Positions 13,402 to 42,075 of a stretch of DNA of 64,000 nucleotides are shown here, in pieces. The DNA is from a virus. Every line of letters begins with the position of its first letter. Position 1 is the stretch's first letter. Location of the stretch: positions 36,096 through 100,095 of the IMG/VR virus record IMGVR_UViG_3300027823_000001, one strand, 5' to 3'. The position numbers and the translations under genes are program-made. A model generated the notes under the pieces. It was not told the DNA's origin. It saw nothing but the letters and a program-made list of their open reading frames with translations, and made no database searches.

Positions 13402-13406
13402 CCACG

Positions 13407-18333: not shown

Positions 18334-18344
18334 AGGAGCGGGAT

Positions 18345-18422: not shown

Positions 18423-21179
18423 ATGCCTGAACGCGCGAACCCGTCTCTGCAACTCCCTGGCTACAGTGCTGGGGGCGACATCCCTGGCCAGGCGAAGCAC
18501 GCAGCTACGCGAGCCGCACAGGGACGCGGCGAGATGGGCGCCGAGCAAGCCGAGGCGAACCGTCTCTTTCGCACGCACGAAGCAGACGAGTACACCGCGC
18601 CGCTCGCGCGCCGAGCACGCACCCCGGAAGATGTGACCGCAGGGCTTGGACTCGATCTAGTGACCGAGCGACGCGTTCAGCAGATCGTGACCGAGCAGCG
18701 CGCCGACTTCAGCAAGAAGGGCGCGACTCAGCGATCGTTCCTCGCAGCGAATGGGCTGGTCGAGACGCTACGCCGCATTGACGTGCCTGCTGATACGCGG
18801 ATGGAGATCACCAAGCGAGCGCGCGCGTTCTGGCAGAACACGCAGCCCACGGACTACTCGAAGGAGCCGACAGTGCGCGCACGACAAGGGACGCAGATGC
18901 GAAGTAACGCGAAGGTACACAAGAGCGGTGTGCGCTACGTGCGCCCGTTGTCGAAGGCCCTGCCCAACAAGAAGCCCGCCTTCGCGCCACCCGCCCCCGT
19001 GCCAGGCGGCGGTGCTGCGAAGCCTCCGCCGTTGCCCTCACCCGCTCCTGCGATGGCCGCACCCGCCTCCGCTGCGAACGTGCGACAGCCTCCCTCTGGC
19101 TATGCGCCGATCCCGAACAGCAAGATCGGCGGCTACAGGATGAAGGCCGCGAAGGGCTGGACGTACTGGTACCCAGGGGCAGGCCTCACGAGCACGCCGC
19201 ATCCGGCCGACGCCGGCAAGGCTCGCGCACAGCGTGCCGCAGGTGAGTCAGCTGCCCCTGTGAAGGCAGGCAAGGGCGCCAAGCCGCCGAAGCCAGCCGC
19301 TGGGCCTCCTGGCGCGCCCGCTGCACCTACGCAGGCTGGTGCCGGGCCTCCGGCCCCCGCAGGACCTCCCGCAGCTCCTGGGGGCGCCCCGAAGCCTCCT
19401 GCTGCACCGCCACACCCCGCAGGCGCCGCACCTCCGCAGGCTGGTGCAGCTCCTCCGCAGGCTGGTGCAGCTCCTGGACCTTCGGGCGGAGCGCCGCAGG
19501 CAGCAGGGGCGCCGCAGGCAACAGGTCCGTCGAAGGCGAACGCGCAAGCGCAGGTCACCAAGGATCACACGGGCGAGAAGCGGCAGTTCCATCCGGAGGT
19601 GCAGGCGCACACGCCTGCTGGCAAAGAGAACGATCAACAGCATCACGCTGACGAGTTCCAGCGCCATCGCGCCGAGAGGGCGGCGGCGATGCGCGGCGGC
19701 GATCAAGAGAAGGCGAAGGCGCACACGTTTGCGATGAACTTCCACGCGGACAAGCACAACCGCTTGCGAGCTGCATCGCAAGGCAAAGACTACAAGCCGA
19801 AGGGCACCTACCCAGGGGCGGACGCTGGCGAGGACGGCATGGGTGGTGGTGCCGATACCGTCGCTGCGTCGTACGACCGCGCAGGCAAGCCGGGCAAGGA
19901 CGGCAAGTCGAGCAGCGCAGCCGATCCTCGTGAGCGCTTCGTGCCCGAGAGCAAGAGCGTCAGTCAGATGCGCGAGACGTTGGGCAAGGCAGTCAACATC
20001 ATGGCGGACCTCTCGCAGGCACACGATCACCTGTCGGCACTCAAGGCGAAGCGCTTGGAGGCGAAGCGCAGCGGGCATCCGCTCGCGCGACGCATGATCT
20101 CGCAGATCGATGCAGAGGTGGCTGCGACCAAACACGACATCGTGCAGCTAGAAGACGCACACGGGCACGCCATGAAGGAAGTGCTCGCGCATCAGTCGCT
20201 GCTGCGCAACGAGCGCATCCGTGCAAACCCGATCTTCCGGGCGTTCATGAATGCGATGCAGTCGCTCTCAGGACTCTCGGACAAGATCGGCGCGAAGCTC
20301 GGCGAGAAGGCAGGGCAAGCGCTGGAAGGCGCAAAGGGTGCCGTCGAAGACTTCAAGAACCGAGGCGCCAAGGCAGAGCAAGACGCAGCGCGCGGTCAGC
20401 TCGATTCGTCGCTCGCGGCTGCCGGCGAAGGGGACGATCCCGAGAACGGTGAGGTGAAGCCGCTCGGCGTGACCAAGGACGACATCGCGGCGCAGTACGG
20501 CGACCCCGAAGCAGAAGAGCAAGGGCAGGCACGCACCGCGGAAGCGATGGACGTGCTGAAGAAGCTCGGACAGGCGCAGGGCGATGAGCCGCAAGATGCA
20601 AGCGCAGATGACGTGGAATCGATACCCGACGACGAAGCTGCCGCGGCTGGTGGAGACGACGCAGGCGGCGAGAGCGAAGCCGACGGTGCGATCAAAGACA
20701 TCTTCGGCATGCGGGACCAGCGCGAGCAGCAAGGCGCCGCGAACAAGCAGCGCGCCGAGGAGAGTGCGGGCTTCGATCGCGAACTCGCATCGGCGCGCAA
20801 CAAGCGTGACGCGATCGAGCAGAAGGCCGCGGCGCAGGCTGACCATTTCGAGCAGCGCAACAAGGGTCGCAGCGAGAAGAGCGTGATGCGTGAGTCGCTC
20901 GGCGGCGGCGACGAAGACACGCAGGTCGCATCGGGCGTGCGCAAGAAGCAGGCGCCTTCAACGCGAGAGCAGAGCACCGTCTCCGTCACAGGTGCGAAGC
21001 GCAAGCAAGCCGTCGCCGTCGAGAAGAGCATGCGACTCGTGAAGAGCGCGCAGTGGCAAGCGGTGATGCGTCTCGCGCCCAAGCTTGATAACACGCTGCG
21101 CAAGAGCACGCGCTACGTCGCACCGCTCGCCCACGTCGCGCGTGCACCCATGACGTTCCTCGATCTCTACGGAGGCTGA
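18423..21179 (+). CDS. large low-complexity putative internal head protein
   Basis: 918 aa; Pro/Ala-rich, coiled-coil and acidic segments; several hydrophobic-x-K(S/A) sites; GGY..GWxYWYP module. Confidence 0.75.
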   Translation: MPERANPSLQLPGYSAGGDIPGQAKHAATRAAQGRGEMGAEQAEANRLFRTHEADEYTAPLARRARTPEDVTAGLGLDLVTERRVQQIVTEQRADFSKKGATQRSFLAANGLVETLRRIDVPADTRMEITKRARAFWQNTQPTDYSKEPTVRARQGTQMRSNAKVHKSGVRYVRPLSKALPNKKPAFAPPAPVPGGGAAKPPPLPSPAPAMAAPASAANVRQPPSGYAPIPNSKIGGYRMKAAKGWTYWYPGAGLTSTPHPADAGKARAQRAAGESAAPVKAGKGAKPPKPAAGPPGAPAAPTQAGAGPPAPAGPPAAPGGAPKPPAAPPHPAGAAPPQAGAAPPQAGAAPGPSGGAPQAAGAPQATGPSKANAQAQVTKDHTGEKRQFHPEVQAHTPAGKENDQQHHADEFQRHRAERAAAMRGGDQEKAKAHTFAMNFHADKHNRLRAASQGKDYKPKGTYPGADAGEDGMGGGADTVAASYDRAGKPGKDGKSSSAADPRERFVPESKSVSQMRETLGKAVNIMADLSQAHDHLSALKAKRLEAKRSGHPLARRMISQIDAEVAATKHDIVQLEDAHGHAMKEVLAHQSLLRNERIRANPIFRAFMNAMQSLSGLSDKIGAKLGEKAGQALEGAKGAVEDFKNRGAKAEQDAARGQLDSSLAAAGEGDDPENGEVKPLGVTKDDIAAQYGDPEAEEQGQARTAEAMDVLKKLGQAQGDEPQDASADDVESIPDDEAAAAGGDDAGGESEADGAIKDIFGMRDQREQQGAANKQRAEESAGFDRELASARNKRDAIEQKAAAQADHFEQRNKGRSEKSVMRESLGGGDEDTQVASGVRKKQAPSTREQSTVSVTGAKRKQAVAVEKSMRLVKSAQWQAVMRLAPKLDNTLRKSTRYVAPLAHVARAPMTFLDLYGG
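19431..19475 (+). repeat. 21-bp tandem repeat (PPQAGAA x2)
   Basis: CCTCCGCAGGCTGGTGCAGCT occurs twice in tandem. Confidence 0.9.
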
Positions 21180-21184
21180 TCGCG

Positions 21185-21619: not shown

Positions 21620-21645
21620 CATGCCCGTGGTAGGATGGTGACCGC

Positions 21646-23733
21646 ATGGATCTCAACGACATCCCGACGCTCGAACTCGACGTAGAAGAGCCCCTCGACA
21701 AGGGCGATGCGCGTGGTGGGAAATACTACCGTCGCATCCCCAAGGCAGGGGGAGGCTACCGCTACTTCTACACGAAGGCAGCGTACGAGAAAGAGCACGG
21801 GCCCAGCGCACATCTGCATGGGCCCGAGGTGCAACAGCACCGCTTCGATGCTCACGTCGCCACGCCGCACTGGCCCGAGGGCGGAACAAGTCAGCTCGAC
21901 GGCGCTCGGTTCCTCTCCGAGGCCACGCACGCGATGAAAATCAAGGACTACAAGAAGACGAACGAACTCGCCGCGCGCGTGACGCAGCTGCTCGCGCACG
22001 GGGCGCCTGATGGTGTGGTGGACGACGAGAAGTCGTTGCGCAGTGCGTGGCGCAAGCTCAATCCCGGTAGCACGAAGGACGATCTGAACGAGGCCATCGA
22101 TCTCGCCCGCGGCATCCACAAGGGGCAGCGCTTCGTCGTCAGCTCCGATCTGTTCTTCAAGGCCGCAGGTCACAAGTACATCTCGCGCAAGCCGGACGGC
22201 AAGGGCGGCTGGGTCTACAGCTACGCGGACGATGGCGAGCAGATCAAGATCGCAAGCAAGAGGGCGCCATTCGACATCAAGACCCGCGACGGCACCGAGA
22301 GCCGCGAGGGCGTGCACGCTGGCGACTACGCACTGCATCGCGAGAAGGGCTACGGTGGGATGCGGTATCACGTGACTCACAAGCCTTCTGGGATGTCCGT
22401 GGACAGCTCGTTCCATCGCGGTGAGGGTGAAGCCCTACTGCACCATTTCGCGGACCACGGTGGGGGGATCGGCGCAGACATCTCGAACGAAGACCAGCGC
22501 AAGATCACTGCGGCGAAGGTCAGCTTCAAGCACGACTTCGACCACAGGGATGCAAGCAAGCATCGGCGCGCGCCCAAGCTGGAAGCGGGCGAGGCTGTGA
22601 AGTCGATGAGAGGAGAGCGCATGACGAACCTGTCGAAGGGCGCAGGCCACAAGTACACGTCGAAGAAGGCCGATGGACGCGGAGGCTACACGTACATCTA
22701 CGCGCACCCCGAGAGCGGTGAGCAAGTACGGGTGAACACCCACGACGCGCGCGTCAGCAACGACGGGCCTACCACCTTCGCGCATCACCACGTCGATCAG
22801 AAGATCGGGACTGCCGGCGCGCAGATCACCGGGTCAGAGGCGGAGCCTCGACTCCGCGTGGGAGGTGCCGCCGGCACGAGCGATCCACACATTCACTCGA
22901 TGCTCATCGACGCTGCGAAGGACCATCACAAGAGGGCCCTCGCGCAGAGCGCGAAGCGAGCAGCCAAGCAGGGCATGTTCACAACGAAGAAGTCGATGCA
23001 ACACGAAGGAGAGACTGAGATGATGGAGAGCACCCCCCACCTGCGAGCGCAGGTGAAGATGGTCATCGAGCAGATGGATCCGCTGGCGAAGGGCATCTAC
23101 GCCTTCGAGGGCGGCATGAACCAAGCGCCCAAGATCCCCGACGAGTATCTGCTCGCCTACCTCGATGCGTTCATCGAGGAGGCGTTTGAGCACGAGCGCC
23201 GCGAGAAGGGTCACGACGAGAACGCTGTAGTGGTCGGCATCTCGCAGCCTGAGGTCGGCAGTGCAAACGGTGGCATCGGCGGAGACTCCGCCGACTACTG
23301 GGCGCAGTGGGTGTTAAACGAACTCATCACGTACTGCGGCAAGAACGCGAACCTCATGCGCGCCGTCGAGAAGGCGCACGCGAACAAGGACTTCGTGGCG
23401 TCACGGCTGCGCGCGATGGGCCTCGTGAAGCCGTCGATGAACGGTGGCGAGGTCAACGGCGACTTCATGGAGGGCTACCAGTACAGCGAGCAGCAGACCG
23501 CCGCGGGGATCGGCAAGTCGGTCGGCTACGATCGCGGTGCGTTCTCGACCAGCGATGAGTTGCACAAGGCGCTCGAACGCACGCAGAGCATCCGCGCCGA
23601 GGAAGAGGCGACGGTCAAGCTGGAAGACGACGGGATCAACCCGATCGAGATGCTAGCCAACGTCCACCGCGCGCGCTTCAACCTCATGGAGGATGTCTTC
23701 GGGATCGATCTCGGCATGAAGGCGAAGCGCTGA
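21646..23733 (+). CDS. putative internal head polyprotein with three KY...GG.Y.Y modules
   Basis: modules at 21721, 22171 and 22648, each just after LDKG, FFKA or LSKG. Confidence 0.75.
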   Translation: MDLNDIPTLELDVEEPLDKGDARGGKYYRRIPKAGGGYRYFYTKAAYEKEHGPSAHLHGPEVQQHRFDAHVATPHWPEGGTSQLDGARFLSEATHAMKIKDYKKTNELAARVTQLLAHGAPDGVVDDEKSLRSAWRKLNPGSTKDDLNEAIDLARGIHKGQRFVVSSDLFFKAAGHKYISRKPDGKGGWVYSYADDGEQIKIASKRAPFDIKTRDGTESREGVHAGDYALHREKGYGGMRYHVTHKPSGMSVDSSFHRGEGEALLHHFADHGGGIGADISNEDQRKITAAKVSFKHDFDHRDASKHRRAPKLEAGEAVKSMRGERMTNLSKGAGHKYTSKKADGRGGYTYIYAHPESGEQVRVNTHDARVSNDGPTTFAHHHVDQKIGTAGAQITGSEAEPRLRVGGAAGTSDPHIHSMLIDAAKDHHKRALAQSAKRAAKQGMFTTKKSMQHEGETEMMESTPHLRAQVKMVIEQMDPLAKGIYAFEGGMNQAPKIPDEYLLAYLDAFIEEAFEHERREKGHDENAVVVGISQPEVGSANGGIGGDSADYWAQWVLNELITYCGKNANLMRAVEKAHANKDFVASRLRAMGLVKPSMNGGEVNGDFMEGYQYSEQQTAAGIGKSVGYDRGAFSTSDELHKALERTQSIRAEEEATVKLEDDGINPIEMLANVHRARFNLMEDVFGIDLGMKAKR

Positions 23734-23759
23734 AGCGCGAGAGGCTGTAGGCTCCGCAC

Positions 23760-25547
23760 ATGGGATTCTTCGACGACATCCGTTCCGGCATCGGTGGCGC
23801 CTTCCGCAACCTCGGCGACTCGCTGGGAGGCGGAGGCTCTGACGTGTCTGCCGAGGACATGCAGAAGGCCATGGCAGGCGCAGGGCTCGCCGCAGACGGA
23901 TCTGGCGGCATGCCCGAGCCGACTGACGAGAAGCCACGCGCTCTCTTCCACGACCCTTACAGCGTCGTCGACTGGGGCGGATGGCGCGAGCGTCCATCGT
24001 CTCTGACGTACGAGACGCTGCGTCAGATGACGCTGAAGAACACCGTGATCGCTGCGCTGATCACGCTGCGCTGCAATCAGGTCGCGCAGTTCGCACGCCC
24101 GCAGCAAGGGAAGTACGATCGCGGCTATCGCGTGATCAAGCGAGACAGGCGCGACCGCTGGAAGAGCATGACGCCCGTCGAGCAGAAGCGGGCGAACGCG
24201 ATCGAGCGGATGATCGAGACCACTGGCATTCTCGGCGACGACGAGCGCGCAGCGGACCGCGACAGCTTCGCGCTTTTCTGCAAGAAGGCCGTGCGCGACA
24301 TCCTCACTTACGACCAGTGGTGCTTCGAGAAGCAGCGCGACCGTCGTGGGATGGTCTCACGCTTCATCGCACTGCCGAGTGAGACGCTGCGCCCCGCAGT
24401 GGCGGATACCGAGCACCTCAGCGCGGAAGACCTGCACTCACGCGTGGCCTACGTGCAGGTCTACGAAGACTCTGTGATCGCCGAGTTCTCTCCCGAGGAT
24501 CTTGCGTGGTGCATCATGAACCCGCGCAGCGATCTGCGCGTGAACGGCTTCGGCTTCTCGCCTGTCGAACAGCTAATGCATCTGGTGACCGCGTGGTTGT
24601 TCGGGTTCGAATACAACCAGCGCTTCTTCTCGCAGGGCTCGGCGATCAAAGGCATCCTGAACATCAAGGGCGCCATTCCCGATCGGCAGCTCCGCGCGTT
24701 CCGACGCATGTGGTACTCCCAGGTGACCGGCGTCACGAACGCGTGGCGCACTCCCATCTTGAACTCCGAAGACATCCAGTGGCAGTCGCTGCATTCGACG
24801 AACCGTGAGATGGAGTTCAGCTCGTGGATGGACTGGCTGACCAAGCTCACATGCGCGGTGTACGGAGCCGATCCCGTCGAGATCAACTTCCAGTTCGGCA
24901 ACACGGGGCAGTCGCATTCCATGAACGAGGGTAAGCAGGAATCGAAGCTCACCGAGTCGAAGGACAAGGGACTGCGCCCGCTGATGGACCACATCACGGA
25001 GAACCTGAATCGTCATCTCGTGTGGGAGATCGAGGAAGACTTCGAGTTCGCGTACGTGGGCCTCGACTCCGGCGATGAGGAGAAGGAGCGTGAAGCGCGT
25101 ATCAAGGAAGTGGGCGCCTACCGCATGGTCGATGAGGTGCGCGCGGATGACGAGCTACCTCCGCTCGCGGACGGCATGGGCCAGTGCGTGAACAATCCGA
25201 CGTGGCTCCAGTTCTCGCAGGCGAAGCAGCAAGAGAAGCAGGCGGCTGATCAGCAGGCCGCTGCCGCCGCAGGTATGGATCCTGGGGCAGCCGCGCCACC
25301 TGGAGGGTCTGCCGGCGGACCGGACGGGTTCGAGGGCACAGACGACGACGATGGCGCGCCAGAGCCGCCTGATGAGGAAGAGCTGCAAGCGGGTGACGTG
25401 GACGACGAGATGCCCCCTGAGGCACAGCTCGAACGTGCCATGCGCAACGTGCGCGATGTGGATCGCCTGCTGAAGAGCGTGTCTCGCCGCAAGTCGCGAG
25501 GTAGGATGCTGATCGAAGTCGATCTGGACGAAGGAGACCTGCGATGA
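23760..25547 (+). CDS. portal protein
   Basis: NPRSD...GFGFSPVE, YNQRFFSQG..KGIL, REMEFSSW, CAVYGADPVEINF, SKDKGLRPL (Herelleviridae-like portal). Confidence 0.93.
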   Translation: MGFFDDIRSGIGGAFRNLGDSLGGGGSDVSAEDMQKAMAGAGLAADGSGGMPEPTDEKPRALFHDPYSVVDWGGWRERPSSLTYETLRQMTLKNTVIAALITLRCNQVAQFARPQQGKYDRGYRVIKRDRRDRWKSMTPVEQKRANAIERMIETTGILGDDERAADRDSFALFCKKAVRDILTYDQWCFEKQRDRRGMVSRFIALPSETLRPAVADTEHLSAEDLHSRVAYVQVYEDSVIAEFSPEDLAWCIMNPRSDLRVNGFGFSPVEQLMHLVTAWLFGFEYNQRFFSQGSAIKGILNIKGAIPDRQLRAFRRMWYSQVTGVTNAWRTPILNSEDIQWQSLHSTNREMEFSSWMDWLTKLTCAVYGADPVEINFQFGNTGQSHSMNEGKQESKLTESKDKGLRPLMDHITENLNRHLVWEIEEDFEFAYVGLDSGDEEKEREARIKEVGAYRMVDEVRADDELPPLADGMGQCVNNPTWLQFSQAKQQEKQAADQQAAAAAGMDPGAAAPPGGSAGGPDGFEGTDDDDGAPEPPDEEELQAGDVDDEMPPEAQLERAMRNVRDVDRLLKSVSRRKSRGRMLIEVDLDEGDLR

Positions 25548-25957
25548 GCTTGCGTACGAAGGTAGACATTCAGGTCGCCGTCGGGTTCGACAACGACCTG
25601 GACGACACGGGGTTCGAGCGCGCACTCACCGAACTGCTCGACACCACCGAGCGCTTGGTGACGCAGACGATCTCGCTGGCCGCAGCCGAGACCGACTACG
25701 AGGTCAGCTTCGCCGACGTGGCCGAAGCGCGACTGATCTACATCGAGGCCGACGGTGCGTTGACGTACCGCATCGGCTTCAACGGATCGGAGCGCGCACT
25801 GGTGCCGATGGCCCCTACCGCGAGTACGCAGCTCTCGACGCTCAAGGCGTACTCGCTTGCGACCGAGGTCGCCGCGCCGCCCCTCTACCTCACCAACCCG
25901 AGCAGTACCGACGCCCGCAAGGTGAAGGTATGTATCGTCGGCGACCTCACGACGTGA
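25544..25957 (+). CDS. putative virion protein
   Basis: ATGA-coupled to the portal gene; AAGGAG RBS. Confidence 0.65.
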   Translation: MSLRTKVDIQVAVGFDNDLDDTGFERALTELLDTTERLVTQTISLAAAETDYEVSFADVAEARLIYIEADGALTYRIGFNGSERALVPMAPTASTQLSTLKAYSLATEVAAPPLYLTNPSSTDARKVKVCIVGDLTT

Positions 25958-25960
25958 TCG

Positions 25961-30700: not shown

Positions 30701-31002
30701 CCGCGCCGCGAGGTCGCGAGTACGGACACGCGATGATGACCATGACCGACCTCGGCACGGGCGCGCAGCGCAACGTCAGAGTGCGAACGCTGCGCGACCT
30801 CCGGCACGCAGAGGACCGCGAGTTGGAGAAGTCGGAGCGCGCGAAGTCAGATGCTACGCTCACCACCGGCATGCTCCACGAAGCTATCAACTTCCCCCGC
30901 ACCATGAGGCTGCTCGTAGCCCCTGATGCACAGCTTGCGTCCGCGCCCACGATCGCGCGCCGCACCGTGGAACTTCTCTCAGGGCTCGGAGACGTGCGAT
31001 GA
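27772..31002 (+). CDS. polyvalent protein: InPase-like + GNAT acetyltransferase + sigma70-like domain
   Basis: ISIEN.KGS.R, YGYIRGT and DEQKVMLGF (InPase); VPKELRSTGIGS...LREFYKRHGY (GNAT); IAKKY...ELQRAGIEGMLDAIERYD...F and LRLGL...MSVAQIA (sigma regions 2 and 4); start moved to ATG 27772. Confidence 0.85.
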   Translation: MRYIIPELAKAARKLHGRCEVHGMQISIENAKGSTRHWYDEHDNETGSTLMSNDYGYIRGTLGIDANHVDAYVGPYPESTTVFIVTQMRKPDFSEVDEQKVMLGFHSAKKAKAAYLAHYDDARFFGSMKAMNVQAFKRKVFDRNNHGGLVKAVSHKYTSKKADGKGGWTYEYAPGSREHVSAAMDAIEAKHGVSLSVGHHQGDVLTLSKVVVPKELRSTGIGSKVMQELHEYADKHGKTVALTPSSDFGGSKARLREFYKRHGYVDNKGRNKDFAISDAMYRPLAKARMTIGALALFSKANMPPGSGWTAIPGGKRGGYRKRKGAGWDYWYPDGHTHEASPPKYSDADFSNGAFDKDATHWKWKQTNGELKAWTAGGIDPQSHAPVKTGGRFAKLYQIHVAEDPKHPGFAVLKDVTTGELTMMQHNRIYPVEYGLPSKRVQAPPEGPKAPWVPGTSGATVRPSSGRAAAGKRAPVFEGSRANEGTGLHAIETGVYPMASIERWEMQEDGTKKKIKLEAIGVPDHGKNLLVKEFEPLIAGTAKTIAKKYALQMQYERGTRGQHSTNVTLAELQRAGIEGMLDAIERYDAKGPFASHARQFVTDHIRLAAARERLGGVTLPMRHQRNLGRYIAARAQASKDLGVDDPSPDQVAPYFRLLKRHLHPQLSGAQANEAVPASAYKIAAAHEGTPGAVKRSTGERTGDQPAHVQRDTITHPGKLEWTHLYDSFLKGQSSASELFDEDKFALPGLGMGLGYSPEERVAIRQSVQVALDSLADFSFASPGRTKVTYKGDAGEMLTLRLGLRGDDEMSVAQIASQVPIFANGKQLGQRAAEGAVAEMLEHAVEHAREATIGRDAKVLMERAEERLVAPVEVPHGPTWHEVVRKRADAVTPQQVAEYRGAEKARLGDLLSRSQERADQARESDKAMHALSLRGAQEAMRRIERMGEDEIRLKIAQRPSPETAEMRRLMTQSVAVDMPAPRGREYGHAMMTMTDLGTGAQRNVRVRTLRDLRHAEDRELEKSERAKSDATLTTGMLHEAINFPRTMRLLVAPDAQLASAPTIARRTVELLSGLGDVR

Positions 31003-31319: not shown

Positions 31320-31324
31320 CCGCG

Positions 31325-34300: not shown

Positions 34301-37300
34301 GTGACCACATCACAGATCACGTCGGCTGACGGCGGCGTGAACACTGACGGTCTTCTGAAAGGCCTTCGGCACACGCTCTCGAACGGCGCGCGCTTCAAGC
34401 TCGGCTCGCATCAAGAGGAGTTCCTCAGGGTGTGTGCTCGTGCTGAGGGGCGCACGATGGCTGCTCACTTCATGGGCACAGGCAAGACGATCGCCTCGCT
34501 TGCCGCCATCAAGATGATGAAGAACGCGAAGAAGCCCGACGGCACACCCATCGCAGGCTCTCCGCGCAAGCGCGTCGCGATCGTGGTGCCGCTCAATACA
34601 GCGGTGCAGTGGCAGGTGCAGACTCAGCAGTTCACCGAGAGCGGAGCCACGCTCATCGGCTCCGGCACGCTCGCAGGGGCTGTGCAGGCCTTCTCGCCGA
34701 AGAACTGGCCGCCGCGCAAAGCGGGTGAGGCTGAGGATGTCTACATGGGCCGCGTGAAGCACGCGCGCGACGTGTGGGCAGCCAAGACCGCGGGAGCGTG
34801 GATCCCGGAGAACACGCCGTCTGACGATGTGGTGATCATCCCCTTCGAGTATTTCCGAGACAACGAAGCGGACCTGCGCGCGCACGGTGGCTTCGACGGC
34901 ATCATCATCGACGAAGCGCACGCGATCGCTCGGACCAACGAGCTGTCTCGCGCGGTCGAGCGCTGGAACCCGGGCATGAACATGCTGCTCATGCTCACGG
35001 GCACGCCGATCACGAATCGCCTGAACACCATCCCTCGCTACTTCGACATCCTCACGAACGGCAAGAGCCCTTTCGGTACAGAGGCGGAGTTCTCGCAGCG
35101 CTACCTTCAGCCTAGCGCTGTCATGCTAGCGAACGGCTCGAAGAACCCTCCGAGGACGGATCTCAATCCGCAGCGCGCCGCCGAGCTGGCTTCCTACCTC
35201 TCGACGCGCATGCACATCGCGCTCACTGAGGATGTGAAGGGCAAAACGATGCCCGCGGTGCTGCTCGATGAAAATCAGCCCGCGCACATGGTGGGGATGC
35301 AGGAGAAGGTCTACCGCCTCGCGATGGCGGCCATGAGCGAGACTGAGATGCTTGCCTTGGAAGAGGCTGGCGCACTCGGTACGGATGAGGCTGCCGCGTT
35401 CTCAGGTGGCACGCGCCGCAAGGTGAACGTCGCGCGCTCCTTTGCCAACTCGCCGGGCTACAAGCCTCCTGACCAGCGTGAGTTCGTGACCTTCGTCGAG
35501 AAGGTGGCGAAGAAGAAGGGCAAGACAGGTAAGACCGAGGTCGAGGAGACAGAACGCGTCTTCATGTTGCCGGACTACAAGCGCTGCGTAGGGAAGCCCC
35601 CTCACGGCTTCGGCGGCAAGTGGCCGAGCATGCGTGATGTGGAGAAGGGGCGCATCTCCGACGGTGAATACGAGGTGCTCTCGTTCTACGCGACCACCAT
35701 CCTCGGTGTGGACTACGAGAAGACCCTTGCAGGATCCGAGATCAGCAAAGAGCTGCTCAAAGACATCAAGAAGGGTACGGTGCACGGCGCATCGTGGGGA
35801 AAGATCTCGAACCCCGACTACGGTCCCGAGGGCGCCATCTCGCGTGGCTACCTCGACCTCGACGGCAACCTGAAGCCGATGATCGCGGAGTGGGGAGACG
35901 AGAAGTTCGCGGTGCCCATCGGCACCAAGTTCATCCGCGACCCGTCCAAGAAGGCGTCGGGCCTCTACTACCATCAGGACGACTGGGACTTCACGGGGGC
36001 GTTCTCGGACACAGTGGAGGGCACTGACGACGCTGACGACGATGAGAGCGTCGAGGAAGCGGACGGCGAGAAAAAGAAGAAGGGGCTTCAACAGCAGAAG
36101 GCGAAGAACTCCTCGCTGTCCATTCAGCTCTCTCCGCTTCGGCGCCGCGAGCGCGCTGCGTTCGATGTCTCAATGACGGCGAACAGCGCGAAGGCGGACG
36201 AGCTTGAACGCTACATGACCGAGCGCATGAACCCTGTGACGGGCGGCGACCCCGACTCGCAGTTCATCTTGTTCGGCAACAGGATCGGATCCTCGTGCCG
36301 CGCGATGGAATCGAAGCTGCGCACGCTCGGCATGATGGACATCAACGAAGCGCTCGGACACGAGAAGACCGGCTACTCGTCTGCGGACGACAAGAAGCGA
36401 CATCCGAAGTCGGGCTACTTCGTCACCTACTTCGGCAAGGGTGCGACGCTCGGTGATCGCGACATCAACTCTGAGATCTTCCGCAAGCAAAAGGACGACA
36501 CGGGTCGCGACACGGACACGAGCATGTTCGTGCATCGCACCATGACCGGATCGATCGGACGCCCTCCCGCAGTCGGTACCTTCAGCGAGGGCTGGTCACG
36601 CGCGGAGCGCTCGCGCATCTCCAAGCTGTTCGCAGGTCCGAACGGCGACGGCGGGATCGAAGTCCCGCTGAGGGTGACCGCCCGCATCGTCGGAGACGAG
36701 ACGCGCCCTGCGTTCGTCTACGAAAGCGATCTGAGCGCTGCGGATCGCAAAGCAGTGCAGGAGCTGGAAGCGAAGCGCAATCAAGCACGGTTCGAGGACA
36801 AGACTGCGTTCGAGACGCAGCTCAATGCCATCTTCAGCAAGTACCTGACTGACCGCGCGCCGCTGTCGGATCACCAGATGTGTGTGTTCAACAGCTGCAA
36901 GGTGATGGTCGCCAGCGACGCAGCGCAGGTCGGCCTTAACTGGGGCAATGCGGGCGAGGTCGTCATGTACGACTCGCTGCACTCTCCGATGCAGGAGTGG
37001 CAGCGCATCACGCGCGCAGCCCGGATGCTGGACGCCATCATCCCGGACAACGCGCGCGCCGTGTTCGACAAGCTCGGAGAGCACATCCGCACGTTGGAGC
37101 AGGCGGGCTCGTTCGCGGAGTACGCGAACATGGAGAGCGCTCTCCTAGTTACGCACGAGGCGTGGAACATGCTCGATGAATCCGAGCGTGCACAGGCGCA
37201 AGCCGCGGGCTTCAAGTTCGATCAGGCGACTGAGATGTACTTCGCACAGCGCGCGTTCGCCAAGATCGCGGAGATGCGACCGAAGGTGCGCGACCAGCTG

Positions 37301-38086
37301 CGGCAGCTCGGCCGCGAACTCGAACCCGTCGAGCGCTTGAACCCAGTCACGGAAGAAGTGGAAGTGATCCAGCGCCGCATCAAGGCGGCAGAGATCACGA
37401 GCGCTGACGTGATGAACGAGATCCTTGAGAAGCATCTCACGCCGTTCGAGAAAGAGATCCTCAAGAGCCGCAAGTACCTCGTGAACGTCAAGCGGCTCAC
37501 GACCTCCGTGAACATGCCTGCGTTCAAGACGATCAAGGTACCTGATGGTGAAGGCTTCAAGAAGATCCGAGTGCCCACGGGTGAGATCGTCACTGAGGTG
37601 CCGTGCAAGGCAGAGCTGTCGCCGCTGACGCAGGGCCGCGCCAAGCAGGTGCCCTACGAGTTCTTCATGAAGACGGTGCAGGACGGGGTACCCGCCCAAA
37701 CGGCGTACGACTTCCTTCCCGTCCTACCGCACTCGCTCGCATCGTTCTCGCAGCTGCCGACCGCTCCGCCGCGAGAGCGCAAGCCTGCCGCACAGTCGCC
37801 AGCAGCCCCCGTCGTTCCGCCCAAGCCCGGCAAGATCGTCGAGGCATCGGCGCCGAGCGCTTGGAAGCTCAAGCAGGCAGCGATGGGCGCGCGTTACGAA
37901 GACCAGCGCGCCAAGCGCGCCGCCAAGCTCGCAGTGCAGAAGGTGAAGAACGACGAGCTGTATCAGCAGCGTCTCGCCAAGCAGCGCAAGGAAGCATCGA
38001 AAAAGGCTGCTGCGACGCGTGCCGCAAAGAAGGGGGTCGCGAAGAGCTTCGTGATGCCTCGCGCGCTTTACTTCGGAGGTCGCTGA
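31325..38086 (+). CDS. giant polyvalent protein: zincin metallopeptidase + SNF2-family helicase/translocase
   Basis: HELGH (32081)...SDYA...EDWAE; MGTGKT (34472), IIDEAH (34910), LTGTP, QVGLN, QRITRAAR; GGAGG RBS before ATG 31325. Confidence 0.88.
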   Translation: MKYVIPTRRLGVTEDVLEKAHAQGFNRATGGSSGAHKYIKREFLGFLNGRVRYRYWYADDVQRERGSKAVEGTAESVTTSHHEHELLGNIHKLFKNLAKNRVKASEVTEESLSRALGWDGAKVHLHPDFLRKYHAPFVAKEKEDADAEPDRFALARVYRAFQMIPEPMRALIGDDQLMNLVITTRSDPDEVELARDRGWDEPPAGWSSGTKGEVHLLGDGEPGFGEGRGFTAAPVGRPRFGSRFTWTEEVVWHELGHQLHDKLIGEKSPIWDEWKALSLKDPQRISDYAFTNEKEDWAESVACMISRPKQMARQCPARYEFFRKHGLIPGPALNRMLKVPEEEGRWWDLKDTPKAAKIIGEQREADGQPSYVGAYRSEKDQFYTVHYKGRAVFFRLGPPDKETEMQGWDEIPPTIDPETQLPVYDTQVANRFRAQDIYKEIYDDRGNALTPQQALLFLRQDDEDFNAKIPDDHMSWEPSEMDTHLGRVLFSKLGENRGEQSKERERVAKLRAKGSDPGEERHAWAPLAMSQSEFEALTPTFKFNEIRKAAEQPLLKRAYDRKLKRPVTVTAHNPITGKVEPVRSATIYETQNPDGTKTKITVNESEPFVPSGTMLVPVTATRRETSGVETVEQHWVKYRIQPDGKLTPEEKPWEWQPKKNGRGMKKVATGTWPEMRWDRLEPAKLARDLGTTAEMLLHRNGKVESGQILDPMLAKLINPLGERIRSEGDLVRLMREAAKGQASTWVTVQTGTDKHPSYAHMKLTFDGGGNPLLAGEYWNRILGVEQARVDSLLDAKNLLSVEGVQEVMPFFHSFVPSALVKYKDPTAERWVYGEIVEVKDAGRDEPATYRVQPLKGQGTGLTKMARVTTKDMESASSAVDRDDVSRIRRDVQPMKNHLLLYGDNLRFDQDGSLRGGTVRLKLPSDGTITPDEIRRFPAVRSDENGIYVDLRDINSLREEFGGFVMDTHVQTLLDDLMKTEKRNAERAMTKDVVTTSQITSADGGVNTDGLLKGLRHTLSNGARFKLGSHQEEFLRVCARAEGRTMAAHFMGTGKTIASLAAIKMMKNAKKPDGTPIAGSPRKRVAIVVPLNTAVQWQVQTQQFTESGATLIGSGTLAGAVQAFSPKNWPPRKAGEAEDVYMGRVKHARDVWAAKTAGAWIPENTPSDDVVIIPFEYFRDNEADLRAHGGFDGIIIDEAHAIARTNELSRAVERWNPGMNMLLMLTGTPITNRLNTIPRYFDILTNGKSPFGTEAEFSQRYLQPSAVMLANGSKNPPRTDLNPQRAAELASYLSTRMHIALTEDVKGKTMPAVLLDENQPAHMVGMQEKVYRLAMAAMSETEMLALEEAGALGTDEAAAFSGGTRRKVNVARSFANSPGYKPPDQREFVTFVEKVAKKKGKTGKTEVEETERVFMLPDYKRCVGKPPHGFGGKWPSMRDVEKGRISDGEYEVLSFYATTILGVDYEKTLAGSEISKELLKDIKKGTVHGASWGKISNPDYGPEGAISRGYLDLDGNLKPMIAEWGDEKFAVPIGTKFIRDPSKKASGLYYHQDDWDFTGAFSDTVEGTDDADDDESVEEADGEKKKKGLQQQKAKNSSLSIQLSPLRRRERAAFDVSMTANSAKADELERYMTERMNPVTGGDPDSQFILFGNRIGSSCRAMESKLRTLGMMDINEALGHEKTGYSSADDKKRHPKSGYFVTYFGKGATLGDRDINSEIFRKQKDDTGRDTDTSMFVHRTMTGSIGRPPAVGTFSEGWSRAERSRISKLFAGPNGDGGIEVPLRVTARIVGDETRPAFVYESDLSAADRKAVQELEAKRNQARFEDKTAFETQLNAIFSKYLTDRAPLSDHQMCVFNSCKVMVASDAAQVGLNWGNAGEVVMYDSLHSPMQEWQRITRAARMLDAIIPDNARAVFDKLGEHIRTLEQAGSFAEYANMESALLVTHEAWNMLDESERAQAQAAGFKFDQATEMYFAQRAFAKIAEMRPKVRDQLRQLGRELEPVERLNPVTEEVEVIQRRIKAAEITSADVMNEILEKHLTPFEKEILKSRKYLVNVKRLTTSVNMPAFKTIKVPDGEGFKKIRVPTGEIVTEVPCKAELSPLTQGRAKQVPYEFFMKTVQDGVPAQTAYDFLPVLPHSLASFSQLPTAPPRERKPAAQSPAAPVVPPKPGKIVEASAPSAWKLKQAAMGARYEDQRAKRAAKLAVQKVKNDELYQQRLAKQRKEASKKAAATRAAKKGVAKSFVMPRALYFGGR

Positions 38087-38618: not shown

Positions 38619-38678
38619 CGGTGCGGATGATCATCAGTCATAACTCCGACGTGGCCTAGCTCACTCGGTGAGCAGCAG

Positions 38679-38711
38679 AGGCGCGGACCTGAAAGGGCTC
38701 CGCGCCTTTTT
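38679..38711 (+). terminator. terminator-like hairpin before the protease gene
   Basis: AGGCGCGGA...TCCGCGCCT stem, GAAA loop, TTTTT. Confidence 0.7.
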
Positions 38712-38733
38712 CGTTTCGGAGCAGCAAAAAACG

Positions 38734-39582
38734 ATGGACGGTCTGATCGAAGTGTTCCCTACGCCTCTCTCGCCCACCGGGCGCGGGAACGCGTGGCGCT
38801 TCGAGTTCGACGTAGAGGTCTTCGCCAAGAGCGAAGCGAACGTCCCGACCGAACGGCGCATCGGTGGCATCTGTTCGACTGACCATCTGGATCGCCAAGA
38901 CGAGACCATCATGCAGGAAGGGATGGACTTCAAGCCGTTCCTGCATGACGGGTGGTTCAACGACAACCACGACTCTGCGACCGATGCAATCGTCGGCTAC
39001 CCGATCTCAGCAGAGTACCTCTCGCTCGGCATGCGCAAGGGCTGGCGCGTCGAGGGCTACATGCTCGACGGTCATCCGCGCGCTGACTCGCTCTGGATGC
39101 TCGCGAAGGCGCTTCAGCAAACGAACCGCAAGCTGGGCTTCAGCGTCGAGGGCGGTGTCACCGCTCGCGATCCGAAGAACCCGAAGATCATCCGCAAGGC
39201 AATCGTGCGCGAGGTCGCGATCACGCGGTGCCCCGTCAACACGAGCACGGCGCTGCACATCCTCGCGAAGTCGCTCTCTGCGGGCAGCGCAATGCCTGTA
39301 CCGACCTCGCCTGTGACTGGTGATGGCGCAGGTCGGGTGATCACGCGCCGCAGCGTCGAGGCGAACGCCAACGGCTCAACGAGCCCCGCGATCGAGCGCA
39401 TCAAGCGCCGCAAGAAGCGCCTCTCGGAGATCGAGCAGCATGTGCTCGACAAGGCGCTGCACAACGAGCCCATCAACAGGCTCGAAACGGCAACGCTGCT
39501 TCAGCTGATGGCCCCTGGTCTGACGCTGAGGCAAGCAGAAGGCATCGCCGACTTCCACTTCAAGGGCGTCGCGAGGAAATGA
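38734..39582 (+). CDS. prohead (maturation) protease
   Basis: ST..LDRQDE, WFNDNH, IVGYP, LGFSVEG, VAIT..PVN. Confidence 0.9.
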   Translation: MDGLIEVFPTPLSPTGRGNAWRFEFDVEVFAKSEANVPTERRIGGICSTDHLDRQDETIMQEGMDFKPFLHDGWFNDNHDSATDAIVGYPISAEYLSLGMRKGWRVEGYMLDGHPRADSLWMLAKALQQTNRKLGFSVEGGVTARDPKNPKIIRKAIVREVAITRCPVNTSTALHILAKSLSAGSAMPVPTSPVTGDGAGRVITRRSVEANANGSTSPAIERIKRRKKRLSEIEQHVLDKALHNEPINRLETATLLQLMAPGLTLRQAEGIADFHFKGVARK

Positions 39583-39601
39583 CTGTGAAGGAGATCAAGC
39601 G

Positions 39602-40615
39602 ATGAACGACAACGAGCAGACCACCACGATCGATGCCCTCGATGCGAGTCTCGACGACCTGTTGAAGGCGGCGCGGCACATCACGGGCGAGGCTCTCAAC
39701 AAGGGCGATGGCGTGCAGATCGACAACTCGGGAACCTTCGGATCCGACGGCAAGCAGGGAGGCGGGCAGGGCTCGACTTCGGACGCGGGCAAGGTCGAAG
39801 ACCTCATGATCGGCAAGCTCTCGGCGGGCGGCTTCAACGCCGCGCAGATCGGGCAGATCGTTGGCATGATGAAGGACGCGAGCGGCGGCGGATCGTTCTT
39901 CTCGCACACGCGCCCCTCGCCCAGCGGCAAGGGCGACGAGATGTCCGGCAAGGCGCGCAAGCCCAAGATGCCTCCCTTCGCAGCCTCGGCCGACGACGAC
40001 TTCGAGGAAGAGGAAGAGGAAGAGGACGACGATGCGGGCGGGCCTGCGTTCGGCAAGTCCGACTCCTTCCGAGACCAGTTCCGCGCCGATCCCGACATCG
40101 GCGATGTCGTGGACGTGTCGCCGTTCATGGAGACGCTCACCGCCCGCACCACCGATGCCCTCGACTCTCTGGCGAAGTCGCTTCGCAAGAGCAACCGTCA
40201 GCGCGATGGTCAGTTCGCCAAGCTCGCCGAGACCACCGTAGGCCTCGGACGGTTGGTGAAGAGCCAGCAGTCGGTGATCAAGGAGCTGGGCGCGCGTCTC
40301 GGCATCGTCGAGCGTCAGCCCGCGGCGCCGACGCGTGGCGCCACCACCGAAGCGCAGGCGCAGGCGCTCAACAAGTCGATGCCCAACGAGGTCGGTGGTG
40401 CAGGCACCTCGCTCCGCAAGAGCGAGGTCGCGTCCGTGCTGACCTACATGAACTGCGAGAAGAGCATGAAGTCGATCGCCGGCCGCAACATCGCGACCGA
40501 GATCGTCCCCCTCGTCGAGAGCAGCGCGGAAGTGCCTGCCGCCATCCTGGCGGAGGTGCACAGCTTCCTTCGTCGCAACCCCGGTGAGGCGACCGCCGCC
40601 AAGACCTACGCCTGA
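39602..40615 (+). CDS. putative scaffold/core protein
   Basis: lies between protease and MCP; acidic run, coiled coil, many LxK(S/A/G) sites. Confidence 0.7.
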   Translation: MNDNEQTTTIDALDASLDDLLKAARHITGEALNKGDGVQIDNSGTFGSDGKQGGGQGSTSDAGKVEDLMIGKLSAGGFNAAQIGQIVGMMKDASGGGSFFSHTRPSPSGKGDEMSGKARKPKMPPFAASADDDFEEEEEEEDDDAGGPAFGKSDSFRDQFRADPDIGDVVDVSPFMETLTARTTDALDSLAKSLRKSNRQRDGQFAKLAETTVGLGRLVKSQQSVIKELGARLGIVERQPAAPTRGATTEAQAQALNKSMPNEVGGAGTSLRKSEVASVLTYMNCEKSMKSIAGRNIATEIVPLVESSAEVPAAILAEVHSFLRRNPGEATAAKTYA

Positions 40616-40668
40616 TCGCCCACGCGTTCTGGTAACTGACTGAAACAGAAGAAGAGGAGATACAGACC

Positions 40669-42075
40669 ATGAACTCTTTCGTAGGCGCGCGGGACTACCG
40701 CGATTTCAACGGCCACGGCATCGCCAACCCGGAGGAGATCGCAAACCTCCGCAAGGCGCTGTTCGCAGGCGCGGATGTGAGCGATCCAGGCGTGAGCGCT
40801 GGGCAAGGATTCCCTCTCCGTACGGAGAGCTTGGAAGCCACGCTCAAGAACCTCACGTTCGAGATGGACGAGATCAAGATGTTCAAGAGCATCCCCAAGG
40901 TGCCTGCGAGCAACACCGTCGAGGAGTTCAACCGACTTCTCGCCTACTCGCGCGGTGGCGCGCGGCAGTTCGACCTCGGCTGGATGAGCGAGGGTGATCT
41001 ACCTGAGGAGGAGGACTCGACCTACCAGCGCGTGACGGTGCTGATCAAGTTCCTCGGCATCGTCGGTCGCGTGACTCACGTCGCGACCGTCATCCGTCCC
41101 GCGCATGGCAACGTGGTCGCCATGGAGACGATGAACAAGACCATGATGCTACTCCAGCAGCTGGAGAACGCGGTCTTCTTCGGCGACAGCAGCATGCTGC
41201 CCGAGCAGTTCGATGGGCTCTACAAGCTCATCGGCGACGGCGCTCCCGACAACGTGATCGACCTTCGTGGTGGCGCGCTGTCCGAGGATCTCCTGAACGA
41301 CATGTTGCTGCGCATCCGCGACAACTTCGGTGTCGCGACCGACGCGTACTTCAATACGGGGCCGTTCGCCGACGTAGCGAAGCAGGTCTACGACCGCCAA
41401 CGCTTCTCCGTGTCGCCGGAGCCCGGCGTGCTCGGCGCGACTGTCAAGGCCTTCCAGGGTCAGCACGGACGCGTGAACTTGCACGACTCCGTGTTCATCA
41501 CCCCTGGCGGCGCCAGCGTCGCGGCAGGCCTCGGCGTTGCGTCGAAGCGGCCTCTCGCGCCGTCCATCAGCTCGGGTCCGACCGCGGGCGCCGACGTGCT
41601 CTCTGAGTTCGCCACTGCGGACGCGGGCACCTACATCTACCAGATCGTCGCAGGCGGACGGTACGGGCGCAGCACGCCCGTCACCTCGTCGGGCGTCGCG
41701 GTGGTCGCGGGTGACGGCGTGTCCATCACCGTCGCGGACGGCGGGCAGGGGACCTCGTACTACGAGGTCTACCGCACGCGCCCCGGTCAGCCGGTCTCCG
41801 ATGCGAAGCTCGCGTTCCGCGTGCCTCGCACGGGCGCCACTCAGGTCATCGTCGACCGCAACGGCGACCTGCCCGGCACCTCGAAGGGCTTCGTTCTGAT
41901 GCAGAATCAGCGGAGCTTCGCGTGGTCGCAGCTGCTGCCCATGACCCGCATCCCCCTCGCGGTGATCGACACCTCGATCCGCTGGGCGCAGGTCATCTAC
42001 GGAGCGATCAAAATGTATACGCCCGCAAAGAACGTGGTCGTGAAGAACATCGGTCGCCTGCCTGGCTCGGTCTGA
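40669..42075 (+). CDS. major capsid protein (Herelleviridae-like)
   Basis: LRK|ALFAG propeptide, LRTESLEATLK.LT, NTVEEFN, E..VFFGD...QFDGL, NVIDLRG; strong codon bias. Confidence 0.93.
   Translation: MNSFVGARDYRDFNGHGIANPEEIANLRKALFAGADVSDPGVSAGQGFPLRTESLEATLKNLTFEMDEIKMFKSIPKVPASNTVEEFNRLLAYSRGGARQFDLGWMSEGDLPEEEDSTYQRVTVLIKFLGIVGRVTHVATVIRPAHGNVVAMETMNKTMMLLQQLENAVFFGDSSMLPEQFDGLYKLIGDGAPDNVIDLRGGALSEDLLNDMLLRIRDNFGVATDAYFNTGPFADVAKQVYDRQRFSVSPEPGVLGATVKAFQGQHGRVNLHDSVFITPGGASVAAGLGVASKRPLAPSISSGPTAGADVLSEFATADAGTYIYQIVAGGRYGRSTPVTSSGVAVVAGDGVSITVADGGQGTSYYEVYRTRPGQPVSDAKLAFRVPRTGATQVIVDRNGDLPGTSKGFVLMQNQRSFAWSQLLPMTRIPLAVIDTSIRWAQVIYGAIKMYTPAKNVVVKNIGRLPGSV

Follow-up and report, generated by a model that had tools for sequence, protein, structure and literature searches.

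A hydrophobic-x-Lys motif is very probably the cutting site of a Herelle-type prohead protease, and probably marks giant multi-enzyme proteins for cutting inside the capsid of an uncultured phage

The prohead protease of phage T4 cuts after Leu/Ile-x-Glu, and herpesvirus assemblin cuts at V/L-x-A|S, the vertical bar marking the bond. Processing by the prohead protease is established for the internal proteins of T4 that carry a capsid-targeting sequence (PMC3012670; PMC9026906). In phage SPN3US the protease gp245 cuts nine head proteins after A-x-E, in most cases removing an N-terminal propeptide (PMC10052503), and in phage P1 the 250-kDa DarB enters the capsid by means of its first 30 residues (PMC9024508). 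Here we describe the head module of an uncultured phage within a stretch of 64,000 nucleotides (the window; positions 36,096 to 100,095 of IMG/VR record IMGVR_UViG_3300027823_000001), in which a hydrophobic-x-Lys|(Ser/Ala/Gly) motif recurs. Judged from sequence comparison, this motif is very probably the cutting site of the capsid-maturation protease, and the giant multi-enzyme proteins encoded beside that protease probably enter the capsid and are cut into separate parts inside it. The window is the right-hand 64 kb of one phage contig (100,095 bp, 63% G+C), nearly all of whose genes lie on the + strand; position numbers are window coordinates and the whole analysis is computational.

The head module spans 16-42 kb of the window and holds the protease gene together with the portal, scaffold and capsid genes. 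The features that carry the main finding, with their predicted cut sites, are as follows.

23760..25547, + strand: portal protein (Pfam Phage_portal, E 3.9e-19); sites MQK36|A (23865-23867, N-terminal) and LLK572|S (25473-25475, C-terminal).
38668..39582, + strand: prohead serine protease (phrog_1028, E 1.7e-41; likely start ATG 38734); flanking sites FAK54|S (38827-38829) and LAK201|S (39268-39270).
39602..40615, + strand: scaffold, 337 amino acids (aa), named from its position between the protease and capsid genes; sites at K22, K34, K152, K192, K196, K220, K258 and K273 (lysine codons 39665-40420).
40669..42075, + strand: major capsid protein, 468 aa (phrog_752, E 3e-82); site LRK29|A (40753-40755), the predicted end of a 29-aa propeptide.

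All of these sites had been named in the original prediction and all are present, as are those at lysine codons 27188, 28222, 28627, 28666, 30829, 31379 and 38042 in the large proteins encoded upstream of the protease. Sites were counted with a broad motif, [LFVIM]xK[ASG] (hydrophobic P3, any P2, Lys P1, Ala/Ser/Gly P1'), and with a strict one, [LF]xK[ASG], in which P3 is limited to L/F as in the core sites; bona fide sites nearly always have Leu or Phe at P3. Expected counts came from 200-500 shuffles per protein, global or within 40-aa blocks, with the reversed motif as a second control. By the broad motif the scaffold is saturated with sites, as had been claimed (8 observed against 1.5 expected), the protease has 6 against 1.1, and protease, scaffold and capsid protein together have 16 against 3.9 (P 4e-6), the reversed motif occurring 6 times. 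The 81 other genes of the 100-kb genome stand at chance level (47 against 41), and the strict motif occurs 21 times against 18.3 in the rest of the genome. A contrast between head and tail had been expected, of which the excess in the core head proteins stands and the depletion in tail genes does not: tail and later genes have 9 broad sites against 9.0, and the apparent rarity there is explained by their low Lys content. The tail and baseplate proteins (42100-64000) contain 0.6-2.8% Lys, several of them <1.2%, and the open reading frames (ORFs) of the head module 6-7%. Arginine at P1 seems unused here, [LF]xR[AS] being found 0 times against 1.4 in the core proteins of the window, and LVR|S occurs in some relatives. 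A strong match, DLTK|SLSAG, in a 1035-aa ORF upstream of the window was taken as chance, its product being a Rad50/SbcCD-like replication protein.

The protease is of the SPO1 gp3.2 or Herelle type (it also matches phrog_38466, E 1.3e-13) and has no match in Pfam, NCBIfam or PDB sequence searches. His101 and Ser159 (304-aa numbering; H79 and S137 in alignment A3) are invariant across 28 aligned sequences, 23-51% identical, and from knowledge of the family we infer that they form the catalytic pair. In the AlphaFold2 (AF2) model the folded core comprises residues 62-200, with a predicted local distance difference test score (pLDDT) >90, and K54 and K201 lie in segments of pLDDT <50 beside it, bearing out the proposal that the motif flanks the protease core; both are kept in the relatives L007, L008 and L009. 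Three more copies, at K124, K147 and K177, fall inside the fold. In a Foldseek search with this model the top ~48 PDB matches are all herpesvirus proteases (assemblins; best E 7e-4, TM 0.30-0.42), which is consistent with an assemblin-like fold, the matches themselves being weak to marginal.

The link between motif and cut is anchored in the capsid protein. It aligns with SPO1 gp6.1 (9vel, E 9e-54) in such a way that LNK|AL of SPO1 falls on LRK|AL of the window. The capsid protein of phage 812 reads VVK24|S25, and its deposited chain 9row has 439 aa, that is, the 463 of the full-length 5lii minus 24; by alignment this shorter chain begins at residue 25, which is deposited-structure evidence for a mature N-terminus at K24|S25. 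The original prediction had compared LRK|AL with the K|S maturation cut of A511/K-type capsid proteins. In relatives, 5-6 of the 8 scaffold positions are kept in L007 and L008 at 40-45% identity, and both portal sites in three of four. Beyond its C-terminal cut site the protease reads K|SLSAGSA... (39271-39340), resembling the mature N-terminus of the capsid protein, K|ALFAGAD... (40756-40830); in L007 (6285-7025 and 7966-9375) the likeness extends over ~25 residues, through GFPLRTESL, and it recurs in phage 812, L001 and L002 and in L005:4041-4814. This segment may allow the protease to dock at the place bound by the capsid N-arm.

The pattern extends well beyond this phage. Counts were made over 44 related loci, with scaffold-position ORFs taken from 33 relatives; the order protease, scaffold, capsid protein is kept in at least 40 related loci, and the closest cultured relatives of the window's portal and capsid protein, among the matches listed, are SPO1-like and Twort-like Herelleviridae (27-38% identity). 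The scaffolds of the 33 relatives hold 284 sites against 43 expected, the proteases of the clade 244 against 57, the portals 74 against 41 (19 of 20 with a site in the first 60 aa), the ORFs between portal and protease 176 against 87, and the ORFs downstream of the capsid gene 207 against 178, while every one of 37 capsid proteins carries a site within its first 60 residues. Each relative examined has a scaffold-position ORF saturated with sites: SPO1 gp3.3 has 11 against 1.4, the ORF of phage 812 equivalent to the scaffold 7 against 1.4, and the ORF between protease and capsid gene 8 against 1.5 in Bordetella phage PHB04 and 7-8 against ~1 in three IMG/VR contigs of 35-52% G+C. The SPO1 portal gp3.1 carries LSK9|A and LEK33|S. 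On these sequence counts the motif is a clade-wide rule of Herelle/SPO1-type head modules, and its role as the recognition site of the prohead protease of the clade is supported.

Upstream of the protease stands a set of large genes, 13 kb of them between portal and protease, whose products we treat as candidate cargo.

18423..21179, + strand: g918 (918 aa), family unassigned, with a Pro/Ala-rich low-complexity region; an 11-aa peptide between VHK167|S (18921) and LSK178|A (18954), and C-terminal VEK868|S, LVK874|S and LRK894|S.
21646..23733, + strand: g695 (695 aa), family unassigned, nine sites; LDK19|G, FFK172|A and LSK331|G, each before a Tyr/Gly/Lys hairpin module, then LAK482|G and LHK641|A.
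25961..27775, + strand: MuF604, a MuF-like head protein with a C-terminal zincin-motif domain; LVK51|A (26111), LTK101|A (26261) and LSK410|A (27188).
27772..31002, + strand: InPase-GNAT-sigma-like polyvalent protein, 1076 aa, corrected start; a 10-aa peptide to LAK10|A (27799), the InPase domain, LVK151|A (28222), a Tyr/Gly hairpin with GNAT, LAK286|A (28627), a 13-aa peptide, FSK299|A (28666), a hairpin with a large sigma-like domain, LEK1020|S (30829) and a 56-aa tail.
31325..38086, + strand: zincin-SNF2 giant, 2253 aa, corrected start; LEK19|A (31379) closing a 19-aa N-terminal peptide, candidate internal LLK1012|G (34358) and VAK2240|S (38042).

The start of the InPase protein, previously a 1111-aa ORF (g1111 in the counts), was moved to ATG 27772, which has an ATGA overlap with the MuF stop and GAGG upstream; that of the SNF2 protein was moved to ATG 31325, with GGAGGA upstream. 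Two or more unrelated effector-type domains share one chain in the 1076-aa protein (Pfam InPase, PF18823, E 8.5e-35; GNAT; a sigma-region-2-like segment), and the 2253-aa protein is likewise multi-domain, joining a SNF2 helicase (Pfam SNF2-rel_dom, E 7.5e-16, with ResIII and Helicase_C) to an N-terminal HExxH region (HELGH at residue 253). MuF604 has a weak match to phrog_2468 and HEIGH at residue 497, and owes its MuF assignment to homologues, 3 of 12 aligned matching Pfam Phage_Mu_F (PF04233). One MuF homologue (alignment A4, L040 and L032 members) has Pfam intein, HINT and LAGLIDADG matches, which suggests an intein in a head-module gene of a related phage. None of g918, g695 and the scaffold matched a family in Pfam, PHROG or NCBIfam, and an ESM Atlas search with g695 yielded no usable lead. 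A capsid location for the cargo is plausible from its place in the head module, its MuF kinship, PHROG names for the InPase region that include minor head protein and virion structural protein, and the fusion of InPase to the portal in Pseudomonas phage Pa193 (9b41, E 4e-32; PMC11042391).

By the strict motif g918 has 4 sites against 1.3 expected, g695 5 against 1.4, MuF604 4 against 0.7 and g1111 6 against 1.9; the four together have 19 against 5.3 (P 3e-6), or 16 against 5.3 when three paralogous hairpin-linked sites are left out. The broad motif occurs 9 times against 3.2 in g695. A site lies in the first 60 aa of all eight large proteins encoded at 21646-42075, against 13 of 81 other genes (Fisher 3e-6), with Lys content equal, and by analogy these N-terminal sites resemble the capsid-targeting propeptides of T4.

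The joints of the 1076-aa protein were followed through 27 homologues of 32-73% identity. The motif (hydrophobic-x-K|A/S) at K299 is kept in 95% of distant homologues with variable flanks, that at K10 in 85%, and that at K151 in 55%, or in most if Arg at P1 or a one-residue shift is allowed; K286 is kept wherever homologues have a domain inserted there, K1020 as a nearby site in 45-70%, and K729 is not conserved. Taken together, distant homologues have the motif near site lysines at 53%, against 6% near other lysines. In the AF2 model of this protein (mean pLDDT 72.5) segments of pLDDT <50 make up 21% of the chain and contain all sites but one (five of six; P 0.002); the exception, K729, lies at the end of a confident helix. 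The motif also flanks domains that relatives insert or lack. The GNAT cassette is absent from the close homologues P0002-P0008, in which its flanking sites are only ~10 residues apart, and other homologues have different inserts at that position, each closing with a site. InPase itself is found alone, fused to MuF or within larger proteins, and when internal it is preceded by a peptide of ~11-13 residues bracketed by two sites. In MuF604, K51, K101 and K410 are kept in four of four relatives; stand-alone MuF homologues end near residue 400, close to the K410 joint site, and the MuF-zincin protein of L007 (L007:3690-5936) has a ~170-aa ParB-like domain (N-G-N-H-R) exactly at that joint, with a site on each side. 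Judged against homologues in L045, L046 and L048, the SNF2 giant keeps K19 in 4/4, LLK|G, directly before the helicase domain, in 4/4 with variable flanks, K548 in 3/4, and a C-terminal K|S/G in 4/4 at a shifted position; its remaining sites fall within conserved helicase blocks. K19, K482 and K641 of g695 are kept in L045 and L006, and K178, K868, K874 and K894 of g918 in the L045 homologue. Cargo sites are conserved in homologues down to ~30% identity.

These observations bear on the view that the cargo motif is a by-product of composition or structure and that scaffold, protease and capsid protein are the only substrates. Head ORFs do contain 6-7% Lys against 1-3% elsewhere, and some copies fall within folded blocks. 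A position weight matrix (P5-P5') built from 101 scaffold sites of relatives ranks cargo sites no higher than other genes, and separates cargo from the rest of the genome no better than the P3/P1/P1' rule; its flanks mostly reflect scaffold composition. Composition is controlled by the local 40-aa shuffles and the reversed motif, however, and the sites prefer disordered linkers and are conserved where their flanks are not. Moreover, pairs of sites 8-16 aa apart cluster only in ORFs upstream of the protease (98 against 18 expected in 256 such ORFs of the clade loci, and 5 against 3.6 in downstream ORFs), and the motif is missing from InPase homologues where the phage has no such protease. We regard the by-product explanation as highly improbable.

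The last point derives from 67 distinct InPase homologues collected from IMG/VR. The motif follows the InPase domain in 34 of 46 loci whose portal, protease and capsid protein are of this type, against 1 of 21 other loci (Fisher 8e-8); homologues from loci without this head module read N-H-G-x-K-x-A instead. A protease profile found no match in seven of seven complete genomes of the second class, and recovered three of three positive controls at E 1e-59 or better. Such co-variation is the pattern that would be expected if the protease reads the joint.

We consider it fairly likely, on the whole of this evidence, that the motif is the substrate rule of an assemblin-fold prohead protease and that the cargo is packaged in the prohead, trimmed there and cut at its joints; packaging, the cuts in cargo proteins and injection are what we infer. 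The prohead would assemble from portal, scaffold, capsid protein and protease, and would also take in the cargo encoded at 18.4-38.1 kb, namely g918, g695, the MuF-zincin, InPase-GNAT-sigma-like and zincin-SNF2 proteins. In each of these a short hydrophobic N-terminal peptide ending in a cut site would play the part of a T4-like capsid-targeting propeptide. Once activated, the protease would free itself at K54 and K201, chop the scaffold at about eight sites, trim the capsid protein (K29) and the portal (K36 and K572), remove the cargo propeptides and cut multi-domain cargo at disordered joints. Cuts in the 1076-aa protein would release InPase, hairpin-GNAT and the hairpin-sigma-like domain separately, and a cut in MuF604 would separate MuF from the zincin domain. 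The SNF2 giant would be mainly end-trimmed; one or two internal cuts at most are plausible in it from the sequence, the one before the helicase (LLK1012|G) being the candidate. The mature products would stay in the head, presumably to be ejected with the DNA.

Several points weigh against this reading. All that is known of the phage is a 100-kb assembly. Sites are not enriched in the SNF2 giant (8 against 8.3 broad, 3 against 3.9 strict), nor in the two giants of PHB04. Several motif copies lie within folded, conserved blocks and cannot all be cut; on the models, those in folded cores (K124, K147 and K177 of the protease, K729 of the InPase protein, K1441, K1483, K1705 and K2047 of the SNF2 protein) are probably uncut. 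A conserved L-x-K-A beside a conserved module could be part of the fold of that module; K|ARKLH at the InPase N-terminus and K|A/G ahead of the hairpin are cases in point. The co-variation with protease type is confounded with descent, because the loci without the K-type protease are phylogenetically distinct (jumbo phages). Trypsin-like host proteases would also cut after Lys, and the zincin HExxH motifs of two cargo proteins (at 27449 in MuF604 and 32081 in the SNF2 protein) could do some of the processing.

The original prediction had the motif running through the whole head module and falling at domain boundaries, and read the large genes as polyproteins. Since the SNF2 giant is at chance, the code is unevenly spread through the module; the claim holds for the core proteins and for g918, g695, MuF604 and the InPase protein. 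Boundary positions were found in the MuF-zincin and InPase-GNAT-sigma-like proteins, in g695 and g918 and at the SNF2 ends, and the copies in folded cores depart from that pattern. The polyprotein reading gains from the conserved, disordered sites and from co-variation with protease type, but much of the signal appears to consist of N-terminal propeptides (10-50 aa) and of ~10-13-aa peptides bracketed by two sites rather than of simple joints.

An alternative is that the prohead protease trims only the termini, the short N-terminal (and some C-terminal) targeting peptides being removed while the polyvalent proteins otherwise stay intact and their internal copies uncut. The lack of internal enrichment in the SNF2 and PHB04 giants fits such trimming, as do SPN3US, in which 13 of 14 mapped cuts remove N-terminal propeptides (PMC10052503), and P1, in which DarB is packaged as a 250-kDa protein via its N-terminal signal (PMC9024508). 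Set against it are K151, K286, K299, K1020 and MuF K410, which are conserved, disordered and placed around swappable domains, the retention of K299 in 95% of homologues despite its variable flanks, and the co-variation of the motif after InPase with protease type. We judge trimming restricted to the ends to be unlikely. A further alternative would assign the joints to the cargo zincins (HEIGH in MuF604, HELGH in SNF2) instead of the prohead protease. Autoprocessing of polyvalent proteins by a metallopeptidase (MPTase) is proposed by Iyer et al. 2017 (PMC5512222), and both HExxH motifs are present. The joint motif is nevertheless identical to the capsid, scaffold, portal and protease sites; SPO1 and 812 have those core sites and no such zincin domain in the head-module stretches compared; the motif follows the serine protease; and the zincin regions fall under all Pfam thresholds, scans that included sub-regions of the SNF2 protein giving zincin matches below cut-off only. 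Cutting of the joints by the zincins is accordingly rated improbable.

Within the reading that the prohead protease cuts the cargo, the short peptides merit separate description. With the corrected starts, the InPase protein begins MRYIIPELAK|A and the SNF2 protein MKYVIP...LEK|A, both opening M-[RK]-Y-[VI]-I-P, and homologues of the InPase protein have N-terminal peptides of 10-18 aa ending in K|A. A [RK]-[YF]-[VI]-x-P peptide is seen at the N-termini of the InPase (27772-27801) and SNF2 (31325-31345) proteins and between two sites of g918 (18924-18956), and it follows the last site of g918 (21105-21130) and of the SNF2 protein (38045-38086); the N-termini of homologues read M-[KR]-[YLF]-V-[IV]-P. 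This peptide is a candidate excised targeting handle.

A basic Tyr/Gly hairpin is present in at least six copies in the cargo ORFs, and in relatives, in the forms HKYxx[RK]..GGWxYxY and, in relatives, GPYIGPRGGxW. The copies in the window are these.

19128-19180: Tyr/Gly hairpin.
22162-22230: Tyr/Gly hairpin.
22639-22710: Tyr/Gly hairpin.
28225-28290: Tyr/Gly hairpin.
28720-28790: Tyr/Gly hairpin.
31430-31500: Tyr/Gly hairpin.

In 18 of 21 distinct cases the hairpin stands <=6 residues after a cut site, so that it would form the new N-terminus. No Pfam family matches the hairpin segments, even when E values of up to 10 are admitted. More tentatively, handle, site and hairpin could amount to a portable cargo grammar, in which a ~10-13-aa hydrophobic handle ([RK]-[YF]-[VI]-x-P ... 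L-x-K|) targets what follows and is then excised, the site co-evolving with the protease. A handle inside a protein would be bracketed by two protease sites; the new N-terminus would usually be a basic Tyr/Gly beta-hairpin, possibly a shared DNA- or portal-binding handle for ejection; and the site would co-evolve across lineages, K-type here and E-type in T4-like phages. On that view, recombination at these cassettes could add any enzyme to the virion, a sigma-like factor included.

As to that factor, the family profile of the InPase protein (positions 479-573; window ~29200-30300) matches region 2 of RpoS/SigA/FliA with a best E of 5e-5, and a Pfam scan of the single sequence gave no match; it is possible, on weak support, that a sigma-like domain is carried in the virion.

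Phage PHB04 (L004, MF663786), a published 94-kb phage, has at 1411-19886 the same cargo layout between portal and protease as the window, its cargo being encoded as separate ORFs: RelA/SpoT, phosphatase, InPase, a 2097-aa methylase and a 1518-aa helicase. Four of its cargo ORFs open with 6-8 hydrophobic residues (MKPILFLK|A, MIILLTK|A, VIVFLK|A and VGAVVLLK|A), and its stand-alone InPase has sites at both ends. It provides a cultivable system for the rule.

The remaining features of the head module are listed here for completeness.

16069-17790: terminase, the first gene of the module.
Between g918 and g695: g144, an ORF without an assigned family.
25544-25957: g137 (137 aa), a small ORF directly 3' of the portal gene.
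Between the InPase-GNAT protein and the SNF2 giant: a small ORF.

The g137 ORF is kept in position in L007, L045, L048 and L122 (132-251 aa) and differs from its neighbours in that every copy read lacks a cut site.

The general idea that polyvalent proteins are processed becomes here a residue-level, testable cleavage map that is clade-wide, covering SPO1, phage K and uncultured high-GC phages, and the likely processing enzyme is reassigned from embedded metallopeptidases to the prohead protease. The enzymes predicted by the map to travel in the capsid, each as a protein of its own, are a pyrophosphatase, an acetyltransferase, a sigma-like factor, zincins and an SNF2 helicase. The map also suggests short peptides for loading foreign proteins into Herelle-type capsids, a use to which the capsid-targeting sequence of T4 and the DarB signal of P1 are already put. 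Knowledge of the motif is important in proteomics, since a tryptic digest hides cuts after Lys, and is also relevant to defence systems that sense prohead protease activity (PMC12991175).

The locus shares features with several described systems. In the core of T4 (gp21, scaffold gp22, IPI-III and Alt; PMC3012670, PMC9026906), as probably here, a serine protease cuts scaffold, capsid and packaged anti-host proteins at one motif, and the cargo has an N-terminal targeting propeptide ending in a cut site, here of 10-19 aa. The window differs in specificity (hydrophobic-x-Lys|Ser/Ala/Gly), in having a head module of Herelle/SPO1 type rather than T4 type, and in its cargo, which is giant and multi-domain with internal joints where that of T4 is small and single-domain. 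With phiKZ, 201phi2-1 and SPN3US (gp175/gp245, A/S/G-x-E; PMC10052503) it would have in common that head, ejection, portal and protease proteins are processed at one motif, that propeptides are cut several times and that the protease loses a C-terminal part. Motif and protease lineage are different, however; the cuts were mapped by mass spectrometry in the giant phages and are predicted from sequence here, and the genome of the window phage, at 100 kb, is not jumbo.

The P1 Dar system (DarB, DarA, DdrB and Hdf; PMC9024508) offers a parallel in a giant helicase-containing anti-host protein that is encoded beside portal and protease and packaged via an N-terminal signal, and in PHB04 this position is occupied by two giants, a methylase and a helicase. 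In P1 the capsid protein is cut after Glu120, and no removal at a Lys site is known for the DarB signal. The sole link to DarB by homology is phrog_10089 (DarB-like) on the InPase region (E 2.6e-19), the SNF2 protein matching generic helicase PHROGs only; by analogy the latter may work like DarB, though it is not classed as a member. The polyvalent proteins of Iyer, Burroughs, Anand, de Souza and Aravind 2017 (PMC5512222) resemble the window in combining MuF, InPase, GNAT, SNF2 and zincin domains in single late-region polypeptides, with predicted host delivery and processing. Processing is ascribed there to an embedded MPTase, and the passages searched describe no junction motif; in the window the joints carry a prohead protease site, a bracketed ~10-13-aa peptide and a Tyr/Gly hairpin.

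Herelleviridae (SPO1 gp3.1/3.2/3.3/6.1, Staphylococcus 812/K and Listeria A511) have homologous portal, protease and capsid proteins (27-38% identity), a capsid propeptide that obeys the same K|S/A rule and a scaffold saturated with sites, but in the stretches read their protease gene directly follows that of the portal, with no polyvalent cargo genes between. Herpesvirus assemblin (UL26 family) is the best fold match and shares a hydrophobic P3, any P2, a defined P1 and Ser at P1'; its P1 is Ala where that of the window is Lys, sequence similarity is absent and the Foldseek match is marginal (E 7e-4, TM ~0.3-0.4). A literature search found no published K|S/A/G rule and no account of Herelleviridae scaffold or cargo processing, which does not prove that none exists. 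Relative to the systems compared here, what appears new is the Lys rule of the Herelle-type protease, its extension to the joints of polyvalent proteins, and the two elements found at those joints, the handle peptide and the hairpin.

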